From: an uncultured Solirubrobacteraceae bacterium
GTDB taxonomy: Bacteria; Actinomycetota; Thermoleophilia; Solirubrobacterales; Solirubrobacteraceae
Direction: 5' to 3'
NCBI GenBank assembly: GCA_963745375.1
Contig: CAVUXA010000005.1
Span: forward strand, 205,909 to 269,908
Length of the DNA stretch: 64,000 bases
The position numbers and the translations under genes are program-made. Positions 1,824-58,333 of this stretch are shown one piece after another. Position 1 is the first letter of the stretch; every line of letters starts with the position of its first letter. The notes under the pieces were generated by a model. The model was not told the origin of the DNA. It saw nothing but the letters and a program-made list of their open reading frames with translations, and searched no databases.

Positions 1824-3190
1824 TGGCACGCCCAGCTACCGGCCAAGTGATCGTGGACCCGCGCAGGCGCAGCCCGACGTTCGGCCTGCGCTTTCGCGCC
1901 TACGGCCGACGCGAGTACGTCGCGCTCGGGACAGCAGCAGAAGGATGGACGCGAGCGAAGGCACAGACGGAGCTACAGAACGTCCTCGCCGACGTGCGGC
2001 GCGGCATCTGGCGCCCTCCTGCGCCCGAGCCAGCTCCCGAGATCCACCAAGACCCGACCTTCCATGAGTTCGCCTCACAGTGGTTCGAGTCCACAAAGGG
2101 AGAGTGGCGGGAAAAGACGCGGCTCGACTACGAATGGCAGCTCTCAAGACATCTGCTGCCCTTCTTCAAGAGCCATCAACTGTCGCAGATCACGATTGCA
2201 GAGGTCGATCGCTACAGGCAGTCCAAGGTGGCAGAAGCCCGAGCGATCCAAGCCGCCGCAGCCAAGGGCGAACCCCAGACCGATGCGTACACGGACAAGC
2301 ACGGACGCACACGCAAGCGGTCACGCCGCGCCCTGTCGGTCACGTCGATCAACAAGACGATCACGCGCCTCGGGCAGATTCTGGAGGTCGCCGTCGAGTA
2401 CGGGCTGATCGCAGCAAACCCGGCCAAGGGGCGCCGGCGCCGATTGAAGCCGCAGAAGGCGGCTCCCGTGTGGCTCGATCGCGCCGAGCACATCGAGGCG
2501 CTGCTCGATGCTGCCGGCGGACTCGACCACCACGCCAAGGCGAAGGGAGGCCACGACCAGAAGGGCGGACTCGTCTACCGGCGGGCGCTGCTCTCGACGC
2601 TCGTCTTCGCCGGCCTGCGGATCGGGGAGTTGACCGCGCTCCAATGGCGAGACATTGACCTCGCCGGCAACCGGCTTACCGTGCGCGCATCGAAGACCGA
2701 CGCCGGGATGCGACAGGTGGACCTACTGCCTGCGCTGCACGACGAGCTGGCCGCGTACAAGGCGCAGGCCCCGAGCACCAACCCGAGCGGATTCGTATTC
2801 ACCACCGCGGCCGGCTCCGAGCTGATCCAGGGCAACATCCGTCGGCGCGTACTCGACAAGGCCGTGACAACGGCCAACGAGAAGCTGATCGAGGCGGGAG
2901 AGGTTCCATTGCCAGAGGGTCTGACGCCGCACAAGCTGCGCCACACCTTCGCGTCGATCCTGGTCGCGCTCGGAGTCGATCCTGGCAGCGTCATGGACCA
3001 ACTCGGGCACACGGACCCCGGCTTCACCCTGCGCGTCTACCGCCACGGGATGCGCCGCGACGGCGCCGCCAAGGAGCACCTGCGAGCGCTTGTCGGGGGA
3101 GCTGAATGGGCAGCAATGGGCAGCAGCGAGGCGCAGACGCCTTGGACCGAGCTTGCGGCGAGCAACGGGCAGCGCCTAAAAGCCGCTTGA
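1823..3190 (+). CDS. Tyrosine recombinase/integrase
   Basis: Catalytic set present: GLRIGE (R), SKT (K), HKLRH (HxxR), LGH, VY; N-terminal arm-binding-like and SAM-like regions. Confidence 0.95.
   Translation: MARPATGQVIVDPRRRSPTFGLRFRAYGRREYVALGTAAEGWTRAKAQTELQNVLADVRRGIWRPPAPEPAPEIHQDPTFHEFASQWFESTKGEWREKTRLDYEWQLSRHLLPFFKSHQLSQITIAEVDRYRQSKVAEARAIQAAAAKGEPQTDAYTDKHGRTRKRSRRALSVTSINKTITRLGQILEVAVEYGLIAANPAKGRRRRLKPQKAAPVWLDRAEHIEALLDAAGGLDHHAKAKGGHDQKGGLVYRRALLSTLVFAGLRIGELTALQWRDIDLAGNRLTVRASKTDAGMRQVDLLPALHDELAAYKAQAPSTNPSGFVFTTAAGSELIQGNIRRRVLDKAVTTANEKLIEAGEVPLPEGLTPHKLRHTFASILVALGVDPGSVMDQLGHTDPGFTLRVYRHGMRRDGAAKEHLRALVGGAEWAAMGSSEAQTPWTELAASNGQRLKAA
3103..3125 (+). repeat. 23-bp tandem motif TGAATGGGCAGCAATGGGCAGCA, putative arm-type site
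   Basis: Identical to 58154-58176; a degenerate extra copy lies at 3162-3173. Confidence 0.75.
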
Positions 3191-3210
3191 ACACAGGGCT
3201 TTCAGGCTGA

Positions 3211-3282
3211 TGCCCCCGCCAGGAGTCGAACCTGGATTTACCGCTTAGGAGGCGGTCGTCTTATCCATTGGACTACGAGGGC
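3211..3282 (-). tRNA. tRNA-Arg(CCT)
   Basis: Cloverleaf; anticodon arm ACCGC-CTCCTAA-GCGGT; GGTTCGACTCC T-arm; no encoded CCA. Confidence 0.95.
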
Positions 3283-12770: not shown

Positions 12771-14600
12771 TTATCGTCGCAGAGCCGACTCGGTACCACC
12801 GAGCGACCCCGGCCCCGCGTATGACATCGGGCCTCGGATCGTCACCTCTACGCCGTCGGCCACACGCGCGTCCGCCAGCGGCGCCCGCGGCATCGCCGCC
12901 AGCATCGTCGCGCCCGCCGCGCAGCCCAGCGCCGCGCTCCACAAGATCGCGCTGGCGAACGCCACGTGCCCGCCCGCCAGCAGCAGTACTGCGGTCCAGG
13001 CCACGCCGCCCACGCCCAGGCCCAGCTGGTGCGCGTAGAAGGCGACCAGCGCCGCCAGCGGAAGCACGCCCACCGCAACCAACGCAAGCGCCCCCGCGCG
13101 CCCCACGCGCCGGTCGATCTCCAGGCGCAGCGGCGACGCGAGCACCAGCCACAGATGCAACGCAGGCAGTGCCAGCAGCGCCGCGAACGGGTTGCCCACC
13201 CACACAACCACGCACACCGAGAGCGCCACCGCCAGCATCGACAGGCCCGCCACTTCGGGGTCCGGACGCTCGCCCCAGCCCGCGCGGCGGACGAGCACGC
13301 CCCACGACAGCCATGCCAGCGCCAGCGTGAGCACGACCGCCACCACCGCCACCACCGCCTTGACGTCGAGGGGCAGGGCGCTCGGCAGGACTGGCACCGA
13401 CGGGGCCGCTCCGAGGATGCCCGACAGCCCGAGCAGGTATACGAACACCGCGCAGCCCAAAAACGGAAGCGCGCAACTGCACGTCCACAGCGTCCAGCGC
13501 CCCACCGGCGCGCGCCGCCGGCGCGCGCGCGCAAGCCCGTCCATGACCGCCACCAGGGCGGGGATCAGCAGCGCGATCACCAGCAGCCGCAGCGCCCATC
13601 CAGGCATCGTCTTGCGCTGGATCGGCGTGCTCGAGTCCATCGCCTGCGACACGTCCGGCGCATTGTCCAGCGCGTCCACCGCGTTGAGCACCGCGCGCCC
13701 GAAGCCCTGCAGTCGTTGCGCGCTCACCGGCTCGCTCGGCGAGGGCCCGCGTTCGCCCGACACCTGCACCAGCACCGCCGGCAGGCCGGCCGCGTCGAGC
13801 ACGCCCTGCTCGCCGACCGCCAGCGGAAAGGCGAGGTGCGCCAGCTGCCCGAGCGTGCTCGGCGCGCCCGGATCCACGCCTGTCTCGCCCGCGATCGCGC
13901 TCTCCACCGTGCGCTGCAGCGCCAGCGGCGCCGAGCCCACGCCATCCGAGTAGGGCAGCACGACTGGCCTGCTCGTGCGCGTGCCAGCCAGATCGCCCAG
14001 CACAATCGCCGCGTCGAACGGTCCGTGACCGCCGCCTGTCGCGGCGATGCCCCCGCCAGCCAGCTGGGCTGCCCCCGCGTCGCCGCCGCTGCCTCCGCTG
14101 GTCGACGCCAGCACAATCGTGCGCTTGGTCTCGCGCGCCGCGAATACGCGTGCCAACTCCAGCAGCGCCGCCGTGCCCGACAGTTCCGCCGCCGACCCCG
14201 CAGCCGCCGCGTCGCGGTGTGCCACGATCAGGATCGGCGTTGCGTCCGTCGATCCGGGGCGCTGGGCGATGACCGTGCTCAGCGTGCGCTCGCCTTCGAT
14301 CGTCTGGCCGCTGACGCGTTGCGTGCGCACCGTAAAGCCGCCCCCCACCGCACCGCCGAGCCCTTCCAGCGCCCGTGCTACGTGTTCCGCCAGCGCTTCG
14401 TCGCCCGCGCTGCCCGGGCGCCTGTCGGGATAGGCCGCCTCCAGGCCCTTCAGGTCGGCCATCGCGCGTTCGCCTTCAAACGCTTCCGGCGCCAGCGTCG
14501 AGCTGAACGGCGCTGGGCGTCCCTGCAGCGAGAACGCCGCCACGGCCAACCCAAACAGGAACGGCACGAACGCCGCGCGGTACAGACGCCAGTTGATCAT
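12771..14600 (-). CDS. M28 peptidase-like membrane protein
   Basis: N-terminal M28 fold (RRPGS, IVAHRD, SGTAALLELAR) with degenerate metal ligands; multi-TM C-terminus. Confidence 0.65.
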   Translation of the reverse strand: MINWRLYRAAFVPFLFGLAVAAFSLQGRPAPFSSTLAPEAFEGERAMADLKGLEAAYPDRRPGSAGDEALAEHVARALEGLGGAVGGGFTVRTQRVSGQTIEGERTLSTVIAQRPGSTDATPILIVAHRDAAAAGSAAELSGTAALLELARVFAARETKRTIVLASTSGGSGGDAGAAQLAGGGIAATGGGHGPFDAAIVLGDLAGTRTSRPVVLPYSDGVGSAPLALQRTVESAIAGETGVDPGAPSTLGQLAHLAFPLAVGEQGVLDAAGLPAVLVQVSGERGPSPSEPVSAQRLQGFGRAVLNAVDALDNAPDVSQAMDSSTPIQRKTMPGWALRLLVIALLIPALVAVMDGLARARRRRAPVGRWTLWTCSCALPFLGCAVFVYLLGLSGILGAAPSVPVLPSALPLDVKAVVAVVAVVLTLALAWLSWGVLVRRAGWGERPDPEVAGLSMLAVALSVCVVVWVGNPFAALLALPALHLWLVLASPLRLEIDRRVGRAGALALVAVGVLPLAALVAFYAHQLGLGVGGVAWTAVLLLAGGHVAFASAILWSAALGCAAGATMLAAMPRAPLADARVADGVEVTIRGPMSYAGPGSLGGTESALRR

Positions 14601-49957: not shown

Positions 49958-52349
49958 TCAGTGGGTGAGCGTGATCGGTGTGAGGACCGTCGTCGTGGCC
50001 GGGTTATGCGACGCGGCGTTGCGCACGATCAGTCGCAGCAGCAGGGTCACCTTGTGCAGCTTGGCCAGGCGCGCGGCTGTGCGCTTGGAGAATTGAATGT
50101 CGACGGTGTTGCGCCCGCCCTTGGTGGTGACCAGGATCGCTTTGGCGATGACCAGCTCGGCGGCCGAGCCAGCGGGCAGGTTGGTGGCCCGCGAGCCGCT
50201 GATGCCCAGTCGGTGCGCCAGGTCGGCGGCAAGCAGGACCTCGAAGTGCCCTGCTACCTGCTCGTTGACGGAGTAGCGCACCACAAGGCCGTTCTTCAGC
50301 ACACTCGAGAGACTGTGCGACAGCGCCGCAGCGAGCGCCACCGGAGCCGGCACAGCGGCTGGCGCGGGGCCCGGAGGGGTGCCACCCGGGCTGGACTGGC
50401 TTGAGCCTCCCGAGCTGCTCGAGCCTCCCGAGCTGCTCGAGCTTTCAGATTTGCTGGCGCTTTCTTCCTTTGAAGGCGGGGGCGGGCCGACGACGGTGAT
50501 CGGGTGGTTGACTGTGGCTTCGTTGCCACCGACGTCGCGAACGGTCAGCGTGATTTCGTAGGTGCCGCCGTACTTGTATGAGTGGAAGACGCTGGCGGCA
50601 CACGGACTGAGCCACGGCACTTCCGAGCAGGGCGGGGAGCCGGGCGCGAAGCCGGAGACCGCCGGGCTGCCGTCGCCGAAGTTCCAGGTGTAGGTCGCGT
50701 ACGTGAGCTTTTCGGCGCCGCCGCCGGGGAAGTCGACGGCCGCGTCCAGCGCGATGTTCGACTCCAGGCCGTTGAATCCAACAATTTCACCCGAGTTAAC
50801 CGGCGTGGGGGCGGTGAACGACGGTGCCAGGTTCGCATGGTGAATACATGCGTCGCCCGGCTGGTAAATTTTGAGAGCGGCGGCGTTGAACGCGTTGTTG
50901 AGGTAGTAGTTGCCCGTTCCGAAAATCTGGTTGGAGAGGGTGCCGGCGACGCTTTCTTCATTCGCCACCGAGGACCCCCCGGTCACTAGCCCAAACAGGT
51001 TGCGGCACTCATCGACGACCTCATTGCCTTTTTTGTCCTGCCAGGCAGTGAGCAGCGGGTCGGTGACGATGTCCTGCTGCTCGGACGCGATCTGAGTGAC
51101 GATGATGTCGGCCAGACCAACATCACAGCCGCCGTCGTAAGCGTTCGGGCAACTGGTTTGGTCGGGGGAACTGGCCTGGTTGGGCTCCTCCTGATGAGGG
51201 CCTTCAAGCCTTTCCTTCTTTTCCCGCGCTTCTTTTTCGGCTTTTACTGCCGCTTTTTCTTCTGCTTTTTCATTTGCTATGCGTGCTTCCTTTTCTGCTT
51301 TTAGTTCAGCTTCTTTTTCTTCAAGTTCTGTTTTCGTGATCAGTTTTTTTTCGAACGCCTGTTCGTACGTTGTCTTCTTCGTGTTTTCTTCTGCTTCCGC
51401 GGAGGCCCGCTTCTTCGCTTCTTCTTCCTTCCGCTTATGTTCTTCTTCTTTGACGTTAAACTTTCGCGTGCTCTTTTTCCTCAGCAATCGGTTTGCTGCT
51501 GGGATCGAAGCCCCCGTCCTGACAGTCATAGCCGGAGGTTCGATTGCCGGGAGCGAGCAACGGGTTACCGAGACTACCGGCCGTCCACGGGATCACACCG
51601 TAGAGGATCGTGTTGGCGTCGCCGGTGCTCGGATTGGTCGGCGTGACAGCCGCATGGTAGCTGCAGAAGCTTTCGGGGGAGCCGGCGTTGCTAGAGCAGT
51701 GGGAGGCCGTGTTTCCTTCGTCGGTGCAGACGGTCACACCCGGGGGTGTGAGTAGGTAGTAGATCGTACCCATGCCCTTGGGCAGTTTTTCGCGTGATAT
51801 AAATGATTCGAGTTGTGCCCGAATCTGCTTGTCGCTGAGGCATGTTATGTTTTCACCTTCGCCAAGCGGTTCTGGGTTCGTGCATCCCGCCGGCAAGGGA
51901 TACGGAGATTTATCTGCATAGGACCCGCGAAACGCGGACTTGTAGAACGCGGGCTTGTTGGTCTTGTCCGTGTACTGCGTATCGACCGCAAACACGCTGG
52001 CGAGGTCCCCGCTGGCCGTGCTCATGTTCTGGAAGAACTGATCGATCACTTCCGTCCACGGGTCGAGATAGTGGTAGTCGGGGTCCCAGAATATCGCGTA
52101 GGTCGAGTTCTGGTGAAGAACCGGGCTGCCGCTTGGGTTAGCGAACGTCTGTGGTTCCTCTCCCGGTTCGAGCAGCGTTTCGCTGTGCCGTTGCACCCCA
52201 AATTTTGTGCCGCCGACTTCGACGACGTGCGCGCTCGCGCTGGCGCAGAGCAGCGACAGCGACAGGCACAGCGCGATGAGGACGGCGAGCGGGAACGTTT
52301 GGGGGCGCGAGAGTACGCGCGGGGGAAACCTGCGAGCGGAGATGGTCAC
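49958..52349 (-). CDS. Large secreted protein with PKD domain and Lys/Glu-rich insert; frameshift near 51462
   Basis: Signal peptide; Cys-rich N-domain; WNFGDG...HSYKYGGTYEITLTV PKD motif; two ORFs joinable by removing one base. Confidence 0.75.
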
Positions 52350-52562
52350 GAGGCACTCATCGGCAGGCGGGCATGGTTGCCTTAGCGCCGCTCGCGTTAG
52401 CCGCCAAATCGGTCTGCTAGCGAACCGCCCGTGTCGACGGGGCCAGCGCAACACCCGCTAGTGGGTCGTCCATGATTGTTCGACCGGACTTGCACTCCCG
52501 AATCCCTGTGCCAGAACGGGCTATTGGTCTCGGTTTCGGGTGCAACGTTTATGGATGACCCA

Positions 52563-53369
52563 CTAGCGCGTGTGGCCGGCCGACGCGCGCCTGGCCCGCG
52601 CCGCGGCTGCCCGCCTGGCCTCGTAGGCAGACAGCGCGGTGGTGTACGCGGAGCTCAGGTTGGCGAGTGCTTCGTGGGACGTCTGCCCGAACGCCGGCAG
52701 GCCTTCGGGATCGGTCGCGCCGGCGGACAGCATGCCGATCTCGAGGTGCGGAGCCGACGATATGCCAACGTCGCCGCAGCCAACCTCGGCAATCGTCTGC
52801 CCGGCACTGACGCGGGTGCCTACGGGCACCATGTCGGGAGACGCGTGGCCGTAGTAGATCAGACGGCCCGTGTCCGGCCCGCTTTCGACGAGTAGCACGG
52901 GCGCCCACTGGCCGAAGCCTTCCAGGCCCTCGTGGACGATCGTGCCGCTCGCCACCGCCAGCTCGCGCAGGTGCGAGCCGCACTGGTTGGCGCTGCCGCC
53001 CAGGTCCACGCCCTGATCGAGCGTCCAGCGGCCTTTGGATGCGACGCTGGAGACCGGGTAAAGGGGGAATACCCAGCCGCTGGGGCTGATCGGGTAGGGA
53101 CTGCCTGCGAACGGAGGCGCGGAGGGGATCGCCACTCCGCCTGTGGCTGAGCCGCCCGTCGCGCCCACACCGGTCGTTTCAGCAGTACCCACGGGAGCCC
53201 CAGACACAGGCGGGCTTGCAGGTGCGGTCGGCGTGACCGGCGCGGGCGCAGGTGCCGGCGCGGTGCCTCCCGTGATCGCCGCCGTCGCGCCGTGGGCCAT
53301 GGCCGCGCAGAGGGCCAGCAGGGGCAGTATGAGCATGGCCGCAGTCCTCGCAAGGCGTGAGCGCAACAA
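52563..53369 (-). CDS. M23 family peptidase, secreted
   Basis: Signal peptide; QGVDL, YYGH, PHLE; first Zn-ligand His not evident. Confidence 0.8.
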   Translation of the reverse strand: MLRSRLARTAAMLILPLLALCAAMAHGATAAITGGTAPAPAPAPVTPTAPASPPVSGAPVGTAETTGVGATGGSATGGVAIPSAPPFAGSPYPISPSGWVFPLYPVSSVASKGRWTLDQGVDLGGSANQCGSHLRELAVASGTIVHEGLEGFGQWAPVLLVESGPDTGRLIYYGHASPDMVPVGTRVSAGQTIAEVGCGDVGISSAPHLEIGMLSAGATDPEGLPAFGQTSHEALANLSSAYTTALSAYEARRAAAARARRASAGHTR

Positions 53370-53640: not shown

Positions 53641-53683
53641 ATGGGCGATCCTGGACTCGAACCAGGGACCTCTTCCTTATCAG
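53641..53683 (-). repeat. att site: duplicated 3' half of tRNA-Ile
   Basis: Identical to 58259-58301 over 43 bp, ending in the anticodon loop. Confidence 0.95.
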
Positions 53684-53787
53684 GGGACACGTCATGCTCG
53701 TTGAAATGCCAGTATCGCCAGTGTTCGTGCGGGATTCTAGCCTCGATCATGACCCATGGATGCGCCCGGATTGGCGGCGATCGGATG

Positions 53788-53824
53788 GGGTTTGGGCAGC
53801 AGAAACCCGCTGCTGCCCAAACCC
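53788..53824. repeat. 15-bp perfect inverted repeat containing TGGGCAGC-N11-GCTGCCCA
   Basis: GGGTTTGGGCAGCAG-aaacccg-CTGCTGCCCAAACCC; same core and spacing as 101-129. Confidence 0.75.
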
Positions 53825-53834
53825 TACGTGCTCC

Positions 53835-54260
53835 TCATGCGCCTCTCGACTGGGCGTCTTCGTCGCCGTCAAGTAGGCCATCGACCCACGCGCGGACATG
53901 CACGACCGTCTGACAGGCTGTTGTGCGATCGAGGCGTTCGTCGAGGATGTCCTCGTAACGGAACTCGACTGCCCACGGGACGAGAGCGCGCGCATCGCTG
54001 GCCGAGGCCGGCGGAGATAGGCCCGCATCTCCAAGTTGCGCAATCAGCTCGCCGAGGTCGTGGATCCGAGGCGGCGTGACGCCGGCATACGCAAGAGCCG
54101 CCTTGAGCAGCTTCTCAAGGGCCTGCTGCGCATGGAAGCCGATGAGATCGTCGGGTACGTCGGGATCGTTGGCGAGCTTTTCGAGCGCGATCTCGTCGCT
54201 GCGAGCCTTGCGCGCGAATCGGGCGGCAAGATCACGGACGTCATGTTTCGGCGAGGACAC
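53835..54260 (-). CDS. HEPN domain protein
   Basis: FHAQQALEKLLKA...PRIHDL...FRY. Confidence 0.88.
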   Translation of the reverse strand: MSSPKHDVRDLAARFARKARSDEIALEKLANDPDVPDDLIGFHAQQALEKLLKAALAYAGVTPPRIHDLGELIAQLGDAGLSPPASASDARALVPWAVEFRYEDILDERLDRTTACQTVVHVRAWVDGLLDGDEDAQSRGA

Positions 54261-54558
54261 GTCCCTCCGTCAGCGCATCGTGGAGCATCGTCCCAGGAAC
54301 GTCGCCCCATTCCTCCACGTACTCGCGCGGGACCACCACAACGTCGGCAGCCACCCTGAGCGGATCGAGAGCGGTCCGCAGACGCACCATCTCCTTTGCC
54401 TTACTTGCAACAGATGGCTCGATTACGAGGAAGTCGAAGTCGCTGTCGGCCGTCGCGTCCCCGCGGCCATGCGATCCAAAGAGGATCACCTTCGACTGGG
54501 CAGGCACCGCATCGGCCAGAAGGCGACCGGCACGTTCAACGATCTCGGACGTCGTCAT
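54241..54558 (-). CDS. Minimal nucleotidyltransferase (MNT), HEPN partner
   Basis: ILFGSHGRGDA..DSDFDFLV; C-terminal EGRVL; overlaps the HEPN start. Confidence 0.9.
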   Translation of the reverse strand: MTTSEIVERAGRLLADAVPAQSKVILFGSHGRGDATADSDFDFLVIEPSVASKAKEMVRLRTALDPLRVAADVVVVPREYVEEWGDVPGTMLHDALTEGRVLAET

Positions 54559-54890
54559 TGCATCGAAGCTACCGCAGTTGGCGGCAGAGCGAGCTCTTAT
54601 GCGAAGCCACGCCTTGAATCAGGGTGCGGGCGACTGTGTCTGTGTGAGACCGTCGAGGTGAGGCGGCTGTGCTAGCCACGCAATCGGGGAAGTAATGCGC
54701 GCCTTGCTCCCGAGAGCCCTACGGAGTAGCGCTCGTGCCTCGGCTTGGGACGCTACGTCGAATCGCAAGGGCACTTCCGTTGACTTCTCGGCGAGCTGGA
54801 CGCGGTCCTTCTCGAAGGTCGGCACAACGCCAACACGGTTGAGCCGTTCGAGCTGGTCCCTGCCCCAGCGGGGTACACGAGCGAGCGCAT

Positions 54891-55022
54891 GCACTCGGGG
54901 AGTCGCCGCCCTACGTGATGGCCCGGATGGGACACACAACCCCCAACCTCACGCTAGCGATTTACGGCCGCCAGATGGACCGGCGTGACGGTGAGCCCGA
55001 GCGCCTGGCCTCTCTCGTGGAA
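54891..55022 (+). pseudogene. Tyrosine integrase C-terminal remnant
   Basis: ALGESPPYVMARMGHTTPNLTLAIY..QMDRRDG aligns with ALGVDPGSVMDQLGHTDPGFTLRVY..GMRRDG of the 1823-3190 integrase. Confidence 0.8.
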
Positions 55023-55121
55023 TCGCCGATCTCCAGCAGTCGAGCAGTTGCCAAGCACCTCAAGGGCGTCGCGAGCGGGGCCGGGCAAGCACCAATGCAG
55101 AGGGCGGCGTAGGCTCCGTCG

Positions 55122-55610
55122 ATGGCGTCCAATCCACGGCCCCGCTGCTACGTAGCCAGCCCACTAGGCTTCGATGAAGCGGGACGCTACTACTACCGAG
55201 AGGTCCTCCTTCCGGCCCTCGAACCTGTCGTTGAGCCAGTCGATCCGTGGGCGCTGACAACCGCGACCGAAGTAGACGACGCACGCGCCGCCGGTCGCCT
55301 CCGCGAGATGATGTTGGAGATCGGCCGACGCAATGTGACAGCCATGCAGGGGAGCGCGCTGCTGGTCGCATCCCTTGAGGGCCAGGAGCCCGACTCCGGC
55401 ACTGTCGCGGAGTTGGGCTACGCCGCGGGCCTCGGCAAGCGTTGCTTTGGTCTCCGCTCCGATTTGCGTCAGGCGGGTGAGGACGGTGTCGCGCTCAACC
55501 TGCAAGTCGAGACCTTCGTGGTCGATAGCGGCGGCGCGATCCTGACGACGCTCCCGGACCTTGTCGAGGCGCTACGTCGGACGATCCACGAGTCCGCCTC
55601 CGGGCCCTAG
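55122..55610 (+). CDS. Nucleoside 2-deoxyribosyltransferase / nucleotide N-glycosidase family protein
   Basis: YVASPLGF, DSGTVAELGYA (catalytic Glu), NLQV. Confidence 0.88.
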   Translation: MASNPRPRCYVASPLGFDEAGRYYYREVLLPALEPVVEPVDPWALTTATEVDDARAAGRLREMMLEIGRRNVTAMQGSALLVASLEGQEPDSGTVAELGYAAGLGKRCFGLRSDLRQAGEDGVALNLQVETFVVDSGGAILTTLPDLVEALRRTIHESASGP

Positions 55611-56986
55611 CCGACCTGGGCAGTCGCGTCCAACGTCGGGGCCGTCCAGCCCCCCGAGAGTCGGTGATGAAGCTGTATCGCCGAATCCTCAGTCAAACCA
55701 GAGAGGAGGTCCAGAACAACTCGCGCGCGGCCAGTTGAGGTCGATGCGGAGTTCACAAGTCGCTCCCGAGCGCCCGGCGGGAAGAGACGGTGATCGCCGC
55801 CGTCGACCCCACGTTGCGAACTCGCTCGAAAATAGAAGTCGAACAGATCTTCGATTACGCGACGCTGGCCGTGCTGGACGACGGCCAAGCCAGGTCTTCG
55901 CACGACATACACGTGCACGAGTTGCTTGAGGGCGGTGACCTCAAGCCGCTGTTTGGGCGCTATCTTCAGCAGGACGGTCTTTGTTGATGGATCGTCTTGA
56001 AGCGTAAATGCCTCCAAATAGCGAGTGATGAGCTTCGATGCGGACATCCGCATACGCGCTCGGGCTGACGCCGTGTGTTCGTAGGGCGCGTCCAAGCCGT
56101 AATGACTCACCACTCGCTCGATCGCGGCCACCAGAGACTCGACGCTGTCGGTCGGGAAGTTCTGAGGGCTTGCCTGCTTCGCGTCGAGCAAGAGCCGTCG
56201 GAGACGCGTCTGCTCGTTCCCGTTCCGCTCGGCGAGGCGATCGAGTGGCACGAGCCCCGCTCGAAAGAAGTCGTCGACATCGTGCACCGCATATGTAAGG
56301 TCGTCCGCCCAGTCCATGATCTCTGCGGTCAGACATCGCTCCGGGAGCGTCTCGGCAGTTTCCTCGGGCCAACCCTCGCGCACGAATGCGAACGCATCGT
56401 AGTCGTCTTCGTAATACCCCCACTTGCGCTCGCGCTTCTGACCACTGAGTGGATCGGAGGGCCAATGCCGCCACGGGTACTTGAGGAGGCCGTCGAGGGT
56501 CTGTCGCGTCAGGTCGAGGCCCGGTTCAGTGGTTCGATCGGTCCGAATCGCCAACCGCGTCGCGATCCTAAAGCTCTGCGCGTTGCCCTCGAACCCGTCT
56601 ACAACGTGCTCGGATGCCTTCTTGTGTAGCACCTCCTCGGCTATATGGCCGAAGGGCGGATGTCCGAGATCGTGCGCAAGGCAGCTAGCTTCGACCGCAT
56701 CGGGGTCAAGTGCCATCACCATCCGGGCTGCCGCTCCGGTGATCTGCTTCGACTTCGCAAGCTGCTGCAACCGTTCCGCGTTCCGTCGGCCGACTTGCGC
56801 GACCTTCAGTGAGTGGCTCAGACGGTTGTGGAAGCTGTGGCCCGACTCGGGCGCTGTCACCTGCGTGACATACGCCAGGCGTTGAAAGGCCGAGCTGTAG
56901 AGGATGCGATCGCGGTCGCGCTGAGCCCTTGTTCTAAAGCTACGTTCAGGCGTCGGTGGACGCGCAACTGTGTCGCTCAGTCGCAT
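55607..56986 (-). CDS. dGTPase-family HD dNTP triphosphohydrolase
   Basis: RDRDRILYSSAFQRL..VTQV, RLSHSLKV, HDLGHPPFGH, FEGNAQSFRI, KYP, ADDLTYAVHDVDD. Confidence 0.92.
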   Translation of the reverse strand: MRLSDTVARPPTPERSFRTRAQRDRDRILYSSAFQRLAYVTQVTAPESGHSFHNRLSHSLKVAQVGRRNAERLQQLAKSKQITGAAARMVMALDPDAVEASCLAHDLGHPPFGHIAEEVLHKKASEHVVDGFEGNAQSFRIATRLAIRTDRTTEPGLDLTRQTLDGLLKYPWRHWPSDPLSGQKRERKWGYYEDDYDAFAFVREGWPEETAETLPERCLTAEIMDWADDLTYAVHDVDDFFRAGLVPLDRLAERNGNEQTRLRRLLLDAKQASPQNFPTDSVESLVAAIERVVSHYGLDAPYEHTASARARMRMSASKLITRYLEAFTLQDDPSTKTVLLKIAPKQRLEVTALKQLVHVYVVRRPGLAVVQHGQRRVIEDLFDFYFRASSQRGVDGGDHRLFPPGARERLVNSASTSTGRARVVLDLLSGLTEDSAIQLHHRLSGGWTAPTLDATAQVG

Positions 56987-57049
56987 GGCGAGTCCGGCAC
57001 GCCGAGCAGCGCTGGGGCAGGTCAGCCGGTAGGGCGGCACCCGCTGAAG

Positions 57050-57280
57050 CTAGCCTTGCAGCCGGACGCACAACTCAGCGTTCATCCGGAACACACCCCG
57101 GTCAATGAGGTTGTCGAGTGCAATCCCCATCGCTCCGGCGCTCCAACCATTGCGCGCCCGCTGGCGCAGCTCGTAGGGGTACCACCATTTCCTGGGGTCG
57201 CTCTCGGCGACCGCGATGAGTGCCTTCTCGGCCGCCTCGACCTCCTCGGCCAGTGCAGCTGAGGTCTCATCGATGATCAT
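57050..57280 (-). CDS. Small hypothetical protein, possible winged helix
   Basis: GGAGAG RBS; ALDNLIDRGVF; co-oriented upstream of the dGTPase. Confidence 0.55.
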   Translation of the reverse strand: MIIDETSAALAEEVEAAEKALIAVAESDPRKWWYPYELRQRARNGWSAGAMGIALDNLIDRGVFRMNAELCVRLQG

Positions 57281-57520
57281 CGCACTCTCCATAGAGGACG
57301 CCACTCTAGGCGGCGAGAACCATCACCGCTAGGGGCTATTTTGCTTCCGCCGCAAGATCCGAGAAAAACGCCCTGTCGGCGTCGTGGCCTGCAGGTTGGA
57401 GTTCCGATCATGATCATAATTATGGACCTCGGTGCGGATGGAACTCTCCGGTCATTATGCCCTGGGAATTAGGCTCTAAACCCATCTGGCTTTCCCGCCA
57501 GTTTATGATCGCTGATCGTA

Positions 57521-58156
57521 ATGCCCCCGCCCGCTGAGCCACTCGACTGGTCGCACAAGGCGTGTCGCGTAATCGGCCAAGTACTTCTTTCGGCATCGTC
57601 TCGTACTCTGACAGCACCGGAGATCGCGAACGCGACGGGCCGCGCAAACGTGAAGCGCACCGCTGACGACATGGTGCACGCGGGGCTTCTTGAGCATCGA
57701 CCTCCCCCGCCGGCGGCGCCGAGCAGGCCCGGCAGACGCGCGACTGTTGCGTACCACCTTCCGCACGCGGGCGCAGACGACCTCCGCGCCGAGTTGGAGC
57801 AGCGACATCCCGTCGGGCGCGTGCAAGCGGGTCAGCAAATCGTGCTCGCCGAAGTGGGCCCGGCGCAGGTCGCGAGCCTCTTCGAGACCCTCGACGCCTC
57901 GCCCATACTCGCGAGCGCCTCTTGGTTCGCTCTCCTGGACGGCGAGCCGCAAGAGCTCGCGATCGTGTTCAGCGGCCCGGATGCAACTGCCGGCGCGCTT
58001 GATCTGATGGCTGAGTTGCGCGGCGCGCAGCTACAGGCCCGTCGGGCAGCACTTACAGGCGCCGGTCCCGTTCAGCAACTCATCGTGCGCACCAGGCAGG
58101 CAGCGCGATCAGCGCGACGCGCTCGCATGGCCCGTGCGACCCGCGAGGCTGTGTGA
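57521..58156 (+). CDS. Hypothetical protein with N-terminal winged HTH
   Basis: LTAPEIANATG...DDMVHAGLL...PGRRATVAY. Confidence 0.6.
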   Translation: MPPPAEPLDWSHKACRVIGQVLLSASSRTLTAPEIANATGRANVKRTADDMVHAGLLEHRPPPPAAPSRPGRRATVAYHLPHAGADDLRAELEQRHPVGRVQAGQQIVLAEVGPAQVASLFETLDASPILASASWFALLDGEPQELAIVFSGPDATAGALDLMAELRGAQLQARRAALTGAGPVQQLIVRTRQAARSARRARMARATREAV

Positions 58157-58176
58157 ATGGGCAGCAATGGGCAGCA
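58154..58176 (+). repeat. 23-bp tandem motif TGAATGGGCAGCAATGGGCAGCA
   Basis: Identical to 3103-3125. Confidence 0.75.
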
Positions 58177-58259
58177 ACAATGATGTTGATGTCTCCGAGT
58201 CCGCGTGGTGGCCGGCGGCGCTCGGCGAAAAACGGCTCTGTCCGGCCATGGAAGACCTA

Positions 58260-58333
<74 letters not shown>

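Follow-up and report, generated by a model that had tools for sequence, protein, structure and literature searches.

Do the genes for an enzyme of the nucleoside 2-deoxyribosyltransferase (NDT) family and a deoxynucleoside triphosphate (dNTP) triphosphohydrolase, which converge tail to tail inside a tRNA-linked islet of an uncultured bacterium, belong to a single defence cassette? The question is raised by positions 55122-58156 of a 64,000-nucleotide stretch, here called the window, on the forward strand of a contig of an uncultured Solirubrobacteraceae genome (G000:C5:205909-269908; positions are in window numbering unless a locus is named). Two further genes lie beside the pair, one for a small winged-helix (WH) protein upstream of the hydrolase gene and one for a divergent 211-aa winged helix-turn-helix (wHTH) protein, p211 (Table 1), and the original prediction had been that all four form a two-step nucleotide-depletion defence. 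Our findings lead us, with moderate confidence, to propose a mobile and regulated dNTP-depletion module, probably antiviral, to which the NDT would add an optional second step. As judged from gene order across loci, the core of this module is the small WH gene plus the dGTPase gene, p211 is a frequent companion and the NDT is facultative. The cassette would probably represent a multi-gene version, not described before, of the established antiviral defence by nucleotide starvation.

Depletion of dNTPs is an immune strategy common to bacteria (dGTPase, dCTP deaminase, Clover) and animals (SAMHD1), and the restraint of the toxic enzymes that carry it out is understood for few systems. To our knowledge, it has not been addressed whether cells prevent the rebuilding of dNTPs from the deoxynucleosides that are released. 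The small WH partner, together with the sensor-like regulator that stands divergent from it at some loci, could explain how this dGTPase clade is controlled, and the recurrent, rearrangement-tolerant pairing of NDT genes with two dNTPase families suggests a second catabolic step. Moreover, nucleotide-attacking cassettes of different kinds are swapped at a single tRNA-Ile site in Solirubrobacterales, a poorly studied soil lineage.

The hydrolase and its partners

The hydrolase consists of HD (PF01966) and HD_assoc (PF13286) domains and reaches 242.7 bits against a TIGR01353 cut-off of 152.35, with no equivalog passed (PRK03007, 262 against a cut-off of 385). Its metal-ligand residues H76, H123, D124, D246, H253 and D254 do not vary across an alignment of 14 sequences, the housekeeping dgt among them, and all of the H...HD...D residues of the full HD dNTP triphosphohydrolase named in the original prediction are kept. 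Two finer details of the original prediction are also borne out by the sequence: the 4-bp convergent overlap with the NDT gene, in which the palindrome CTAG at 55607-55610 serves both TAG stops, and the RLAYVTQV motif in place of the usual KTQV, which is found as FQRLAYVTQV and in which V or I for K marks the accessory clade as a whole.

Of the three TIGR01353 genes in the genome, the housekeeping dgt is a separate one on contig 6 (L009:7309-8421; NF002327, 420 bits against 393), followed by dnaG. Although the housekeeping enzyme is of the same superfamily and fold, the two are far apart in a FastTree phylogeny of 75 sequences, in which the genome's housekeeping dgt is a distant outgroup. One clade of this tree comprises 61 sequences that all come from Actinomycetota records and are for the most part dnaG-linked. 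The hydrolase falls into another clade, of 20 sequences (support 0.996), whose retrieved flanking regions contain no dnaG. That clade includes cyanobacterial, sphingomonad (proteobacterial) and other relatives at about 40% identity, and within it the enzymes linked to the small open reading frame (ORF) are monophyletic (support 0.999). A grouping with vertically inherited dgt, which had been raised as a possible objection to a defence role, is thus not what the tree gives. Relatives of the dGTPase from other phyla (L098-L105) have neither an NDT gene nor the small partner nearby. The suggested PADLOC check did return a match of the hydrolase to the dGTPase model (1.4e-87) and failed to discriminate, since the dnaG-linked housekeeping dgt matches the same model (9.1e-73), which makes the match uninformative on defence.

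The small ORF that had been seen ahead of the hydrolase gene ends 9 bp upstream of it and, judging from its relatives, is a real conserved gene. Its profile gathers 94 representative clusters at E<=1e-3, and the 84-aa product is 36% identical to its counterpart in a second cassette of the same genome, described below; a class-level search for the small protein returned only the genome's two copies, plus weak matches within large ORFs. In the AF2 model (pLDDT 85), a long helix precedes a winged helix for which VIA finds Rpa2 and cullin WHB domains (Z 9-10) ahead of DNA-binding WH domains (Z 7-8). Foldseek gave no match at E<=0.001 for either this model or that of p211, and Atlas look-ups yielded weak wHTH-like leads. 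The protein is acidic (isoelectric point 4.7; family median 5.1) and has no basic residue in its third helix, and therefore a protein-binding role is favoured over DNA binding. The modelled fold suggests that it probably acts by protein contact, either restraining or sensing, and not on DNA. Complex prediction for the hydrolase with the small WH protein gave scores of 0.00, 0.38 and 0.00, which speak neither for nor against binding.

The NDT gene product matches PF05014 with 66.1 bits against a cut-off of 28.8 (E 4e-18), and the catalytic Glu motif that had been called intact is indeed so: Asp91 and Glu97 are invariant among relatives, and Glu97 is aligned with the Glu of solved NDTs. Solved NDTs match it at E 2e-7 to 6e-4, the best of them (E 2e-7 to 4e-4) being PDB 7O62, the 8PQP/8RH3 series and 2A0K from T. 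brucei, and it shares with solved NDTs the N-terminal motif ASP(L/Y)GF and the D...E catalytic motif at low identity. There is no DNPH1/Rcl chain among its PDB matches at E<=0.01, a result that is not decisive for the type of activity. Both NDT genes of the genome are cassette-borne, and their products are 73% identical.

The 211-aa protein has no Pfam match, and its sequence matches to wHTH regulators are weak (E 0.03). Its AF2 model (pLDDT 81) begins with a MarR/ArsR-type winged helix, and VIA aligns residues 9-99 with MarR-family wHTH domains (Z 9-11, root-mean-square deviation 1.3-2 A over about 75 residues), the best match being 7WZE (Z 11.1, 1.3 A over 71 residues). The C-terminal domain is possibly ferredoxin-like (ACT/RAM-like) and ligand-binding, as suggested by the order of its secondary structures and by weak Foldseek rows in a region that VIA barely covers. 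The AT-rich spacer across which this wHTH gene was said to diverge is likewise present (57305-57520, 54% G+C against 69%). It contains a 9-nt palindrome, ATCATGATC, at 57407-57420 and nothing further; a search of the spacer found no sigma-70 consensus match and no convincing operator, and its conservation against homologous spacers is weak.

Gene linkage and the tRNA-Ile islet

Are the four genes neighbours elsewhere? The small WH and dGTPase genes occur together at 13 loci, and at 12 of them the small gene is directly upstream (in L026 an extra ORF lies between). A p211 homologue with 29-44% identity stands divergent from this pair at four further loci (L186-L189), and an NDT gene accompanies the core at 7 of the 13. 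The genes do recur as neighbours pair by pair, while the four-gene set is not conserved as a unit: all four occur together only in the window, and the NDT is dispensable. Further loci were found with a degenerate DNA motif for the small-protein core, WW..EL..ARNGW. All six loci recovered in this way have a dGTPase gene directly downstream (56-71% identical), four carry the divergent p211 gene upstream, two are at tRNA-Ile, one is in a Trueperaceae metagenome-assembled genome (MAG) and none has an NDT gene.

The second cassette of the genome lies on the same contig, 240 kb away (L008:8137-11081, or G000:C5:18136-21080). Its dGTPase is 45% identical to that of the window, and it includes an extra 152-aa gene. 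It forms a discrete 2.9-kb block that is 87-92% identical to blocks with unrelated flanks in two MAGs (L020 and L021), and the L021 copy occupies the same tRNA-Ile/parB site as the islet of the window. The genome's own copy is inside a flagellar cluster, with fliJ (L008:7500-8024) on one side and the genes towards fliG (13220-14383) on the other, and a search of its edges found no tRNA remnant and no direct repeat. The extra gene belongs to a conserved 150-170-aa protein that lies between the NDT gene and the dNTPase operon in this cassette type (B) and in a further one (C) (L008:8654-9112; L021:8473-8925; L025:8537-9046) and that is absent from the window cassette; the 152-169-aa products have no Pfam, PADLOC or PDB match.

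The arrangement of the pair varies considerably. It is convergent in the window and reads NDT>orf152><dGTPase<small in the B type, and in L024-L026 the cassette is fully colinear, next to tRNA-Ala and with an integrase just beyond. In L079 the NDT gene is divergent, next to tRNA-Met, and this locus (L079:164-4353) brings together a SAMHD1-like HD protein, a Dgt-type enzyme (PADLOC dGTPase, 1.7e-116; K of KTQV kept) and the NDT without the small WH gene. Among 78 loci of close NDT relatives, six have a Dgt-type enzyme nearby, five of these together with the small gene. Six NDT loci (L023, L032, L068, L072, L074 and L079) have a 470-700-aa protein with HD and HD_assoc_2 domains whose N terminus matches SAMHD1 and EF1143, and in L074, L068 and L032 this SAMHD1-like gene is divergent from the NDT gene across about 100 bp. 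Five or six of these pairings lie in further islets linked to a tRNA. The islet of L074, in a complete MAG, belongs to the tRNA-Ile family seen in the window; its HEPN-MNT pair is 78% identical, and the SAMHD1-like gene there replaces the Dgt operon. In an NDT tree, 7 of 8 Dgt-linked copies fall into one group (SH-aLRT 89), a topology that agrees with a single old association for cassette types A, B and C and separate ones for L079 and the SAMHD1-like pairs.

Two of these loci have further contents of their own. L074:4298-10554 contains an XRE-type HTH gene, the SAMHD1-like HD gene divergent from the NDT gene, an IS481-family transposase inside the NDT gene, and HEPN/MNT. At L068:9568-11354, a DRT UG22 reverse transcriptase (5e-58) and a reverse transcriptase-associated HEPN protein lie about 1.5 kb from the pair of NDT and SAMHD1-like genes, and L068 is a small defence island.

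The placement of the genes inside a tRNA-Ile island, another element of the original prediction, is supported by a repeat search: perfect 43/43-nt direct repeats of the tRNA 3' end (53641-53683 and 58259-58301) delimit an islet of 4.6 kb. The tRNA-Ile/parB flank is universal in 61 genus genomes, and HEPN-MNT often abuts the tRNA there. The comparator genome G454 (L191) has the same left flank, attachment (att) repeat, HEPN-MNT, tRNA-Ile and parB, and about 270 bp where the window has 54586-58258, and G459, G001 and G450 also have the block-free site. From the G454 site we conclude that the dNTPase block, 3.67 kb long, was inserted into an older mini-islet on its tRNA side. Its G+C content is 0.63-0.67 against 0.69, and it starts with a remnant of about 36-65 aa from a recombinase tail. 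This remnant aligns by tblastn to the C-terminal end of a PF00589 integrase (L023:3134-3241; 50% over 36 aa, E 2e-4) and also matches G000:C5:208898-209002 (E 0.006); a PF00589 scan of the genome missed it, and only tblastn with real integrase tails recovered it.

No intact integrase was found in the islet beyond this C-terminal remnant, its ORFs include no phage structural or replication genes, and a search for a third att copy inside it, or for one specific to the inner block, was negative. Elsewhere, cassettes adjoin tRNA-Ile, tRNA-Ala or tRNA-Met at most loci, with an intact integrase beside one, and the tRNA-Ile/parB site holds other cassette variants in L021, L074, L188 and L189. The block is best explained as cargo brought to the 3' end of tRNA-Ile by an integrative element that has since decayed. 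A search of 60 genus relatives (tallies here include the unpublished genome G453) gave, among the matches listed (168 others were not), one in the dGTPase-small-p211 region, a 68%-identical dGTPase elsewhere in G017.

The HEPN/MNT pair belongs to the same islet and lies outside the inserted block, and many genus genomes have HEPN/MNT at tRNA-Ile without the dNTPase block. An att-bounded mini-islet of about 1.2 kb with HEPN/MNT only and without an integrase can be seen in the window (53641-54585) and at L191:2149-3427 and L194:1476-2914; it seems to be a relic, displaced from the tRNA by elements that inserted later.

A proposed depletion module and its alternatives

What might such a mobile cassette do? 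We suggest that its core would be a two-gene operon for the small acidic WH protein and then the accessory Dgt-family hydrolase, the transcription of which the divergent 211-aa wHTH regulator would set. The hydrolase would convert one or more dNTPs to deoxynucleoside and triphosphate, and the small WH protein would restrain it or sense by protein contact. Where an NDT is present, it could cleave or exchange the base of the released deoxynucleoside and thereby block rebuilding of the pool by kinase salvage. That such a module might serve in defence is suggested by context alone, which includes the conflict-system company that the cassettes keep, with HEPN/MNT in the islet of the window and DRT UG22 and HEPN in L068. 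The two-step idea gains comparative support because NDT genes adjoin dNTPase genes in convergent, colinear and divergent orders and adjoin a second HD family as well; the original prediction as a whole is supported in part.

In our literature searches, neither an NDT+dGTPase nor a WH+dGTPase system turned up, nor any paper on the cassette, in keeping with the earlier impression that the four-gene set is not a named system, and a 2026 survey of dGTPase architectures leaves NDT and winged-helix partners unmentioned (PMC13519002). Stand-alone anti-phage dGTPases (Sp-dGTPase; Vibrio Vdg, PMC13519002; NF041026; PADLOC dGTPase) share with the window enzyme the HD and HD_assoc domains, TIGR01353 membership and intact metal ligands, and they too are accessory copies beside a housekeeping dgt, sporadic on mobile DNA. 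In contrast to these single genes, the enzyme described here has a small WH partner, often a divergent wHTH gene and sometimes an NDT gene, and its clade, which is not theirs, has V or I for the K of KTQV. Clover is likewise a multi-gene dNTPase system, in which the toxic dNTP-depleting effector CloA is restrained by a partner enzyme, the nucleotidyltransferase CloB (PMC12265719); that partner is a Pol-beta nucleotidyltransferase, whereas here it would be an 80-aa acidic winged helix. The MNT of the islet was considered as a CloB-like partner and rejected, as it occurs with HEPN and without a dNTPase in relatives and no homologue was found beside the dGTPase at six further cassette loci (L185-L190).

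The nearest precedent for a two-step logic comes from phages with dZ genomes, in which an NDT that prefers dA co-occurs with the HD dATPase DatZ and has been proposed to drain the deoxynucleoside (bioRxiv 10.1101/2025.10.22.683976). Both cases join an HD dNTP triphosphohydrolase to a PF05014 NDT; the phage pair serves genome modification with a YfbR-like/HD_3 enzyme, whereas the enzyme here is Dgt-type, in a chromosomal islet, with no PurZ or DpoZ. An NDT-fold enzyme also attacks the nucleotide pool in a conflict system, as the effector of the type II-A retron Ec86 (PMC13276650; 10.1101/2023.08.16.553469). Unlike that effector, the window NDT has no PADLOC match, including to the retron effector model, no reverse transcriptase is found among the islet ORFs and no noncoding RNA beside the gene, and in sequence it is nearest to true nucleoside transferases. 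A more ambitious and still tentative version of our proposal is that the small WH protein and the Dgt hydrolase could be a new two-component depletion immune system in which the small protein would be an infection-sensitive brake and the NDT, in sister islets together with the SAMHD1-like protein, would destroy the released deoxynucleoside for good, so that the dephosphorylation of dNTPs could no longer be reversed. If true, this would be a two-enzyme effector pathway from dNTP to free base, a host-side mirror of DatZ and NDT in dZ phages.

Several observations weigh against an antiviral module with an NDT step. Single-gene anti-phage dGTPases are established, and enrichment in defence islands was confined to homologues that share 45% identity or more with Sp-dGTPase (Tal et al., 10.1101/2021.04.26.441389). 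The hydrolase scores 215.3 bits against the cut-off of 400 for the anti-phage model NF041026 (the second-cassette enzyme, 241), and apart from HEPN/MNT no known defence gene was found in the islet. Six of the 13 core loci lack an NDT gene, five of those genomes having no PF05014 protein over the cut-off, and at 67 of the 78 NDT loci an HD neighbour is lacking; in the order, NDT genes mostly occur among ordinary genes. An even phylum sample of 401 Actinomycetota, with tallies that include the unpublished genome G721 (which, like G453, was used in tallies alone), has a dGTPase within 1.5 kb at 1 of 28 NDT loci outside this genome. Counts of loci also overstate independent events, as many loci are kin or near-copies (the NDTs of L024-L026 are identical). 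The NDT is 62-75% identical to copies among housekeeping-type genes (amino-acid kinase, CLC channel, sigma-70). Moreover, at several MAG loci (L020:9609; L186, L187 and L189; L024 and L026) the cassette hydrolase appears frameshifted, being spread over two or three frames or broken by an additional ORF, which is either decay or the result of long-read indel errors.

A somewhat doubtful alternative is that the genes serve nucleotide-pool sanitation or salvage, the dNTPase removing surplus or non-canonical dNTPs, the NDT recycling deoxyribose by transfer to a normal base and the wHTH protein tuning expression to nucleoside or nucleotide levels. The closeness of the NDT to bona fide transferases and to the NDTs of housekeeping-type neighbourhoods would suit this role, as would a hydrolase that stays under every defence-specific cut-off and a p211 whose modelled architecture resembles a small-molecule sensor. 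Against this, the genome already has a housekeeping dgt, and the rarity of the module in the genus (the NDT is present in 4 of 36 relatives), the att-bounded islets and the 2.9-kb block that moves between unrelated sites amount to a patchiness that is unusual for a metabolic convenience. The presence of HEPN/MNT and DRT as neighbours likewise argues for the depletion module over salvage.

It is also conceivable, and in our view unlikely, that the NDT gene and the dNTPase operon are independent cargo that happens to share tRNA-linked islets, with no biochemical coupling and with the CTAG overlap as a mark of tight packing. The core loci and NDT loci without the respective other gene, including 27 of the 28 in the phylum sample, are what this explanation predicts, and the A, B and C cassettes may stem from one ancestral juxtaposition. 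That juxtaposition nevertheless survives three rearrangements at 45-50% hydrolase identity, and the NDT adjoins the second dNTPase family too, in a tight divergent arrangement at three loci and with both HD types at L079. By a rough estimate, a dNTPase gene would lie within a few kilobases of a random gene in less than 1% of cases, against the observed 13 of 80, and the same pairing exists in dZ phages (10.1101/2025.10.22.683976). An addiction module that stabilises the islet, with the dNTPase as toxin, the small WH protein as brake and no dedicated antiviral role, or as a variant a leftover nucleotide-takeover module of a phage or satellite, is improbable: the constant small gene 9 bp upstream of the hydrolase gene, its acidic product with a modelled WH fold of the protein-interaction type, the adjacent HEPN/MNT pair and the toxicity of unrestrained dNTPases (PMC12265719) all speak for it, yet binding between the small protein and the hydrolase is itself only inferred, the islet is devoid of phage structural or replication genes, and toxin-antitoxin-like control is compatible with abortive-infection defence and so overlaps the depletion module that we prefer.

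Feature map and surroundings

The features of the islet are collected in Table 1.

Table 1. Features of the tRNA-Ile islet in window coordinates, from the distal att repeat to the tRNA gene.
Feature	Position	Strand	Basis or remark
Distal att repeat, left islet border	53641..53683	.	43-nt perfect copy of tRNA-Ile 3' part, 100% identical to 58259-58301
HEPN-domain protein, 141 aa, toxin-type half of HEPN/MNT pair	53835..54260	-	PF05168, 5e-15
Minimal nucleotidyltransferase (MNT), 105 aa	54241..54558	-	PF01909, 3e-9; motif GSxGRGD...DxD; 20-bp overlap with HEPN gene
Inserted block, 3.67 kb: integrase remnant, NDT, dGTPase, small WH, wHTH regulator	54586..58258	.	Comparator genome G454
Tyrosine-recombinase C-terminus remnant (catalytic-Tyr region)	54915..55112	+	tblastn to integrase tails; ends 9 bp before NDT start
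NDT-family gene, 162 aa, facultative cassette add-on	55122..55610	+	PF05014
Accessory Dgt-family dNTP triphosphohydrolase, 477 aa, presumed effector	55607..57040	-	TIGR01353, HD + HD_assoc
Small acidic winged-helix protein, 84 aa	57050..57304	-	AF2, VIA; 9 bp upstream of hydrolase
Divergent intergenic spacer, presumed promoter/operator for both transcription units	57305..57520	.	54% G+C
Regulator p211, 211 aa: basic MarR/ArsR-like wHTH at the N terminus, then an acidic beta-alpha-beta-beta-alpha-beta domain and a basic helix at the C terminus	57521..58156	+	AF2, VIA
tRNA-Ile(GAT), integration target; 3' 42 nt are the proximal att repeat	58260..58333	-	ARAGORN and repeat search

At the left of the islet, where the HEPN/MNT pair is encoded on the minus strand, the plus-strand ORFs 53756-54079, 54076-54675 and 54695-54988 were rejected as wrong-frame shadows and not genes. 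The host genome measures 3.67 Mb with 69% G+C, as in the window, and its closest public relatives are Solirubrobacterales MAGs of soil origin. A search of read sets found the complete stretch only in the probable source soil sample, and no RNA read sets were listed as containing it.

Directly after the stop of the 211-aa gene, at 58157-58176, there is a tandem 10-bp duplication, ATGGGCAGCA, whose first six bases are the start of the att repeat (ATGGGC...). This duplication could be a scar left by recombination or could bind a protein. Near its beginning, the window encodes a tyrosine integrase (PF00589; G000:C5:208481-208954) next to tRNA-Arg(CCT) at 3211-3282, and the region 2573-3282 is probably another tRNA-linked island. 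Finally, G+C falls to 55% at 51-52 kb, inside a region (49958-53369) that codes for a PKD-domain protein, a 332-aa ORF without a family and an M23 peptidase whose PHROG matches are endolysin-like.

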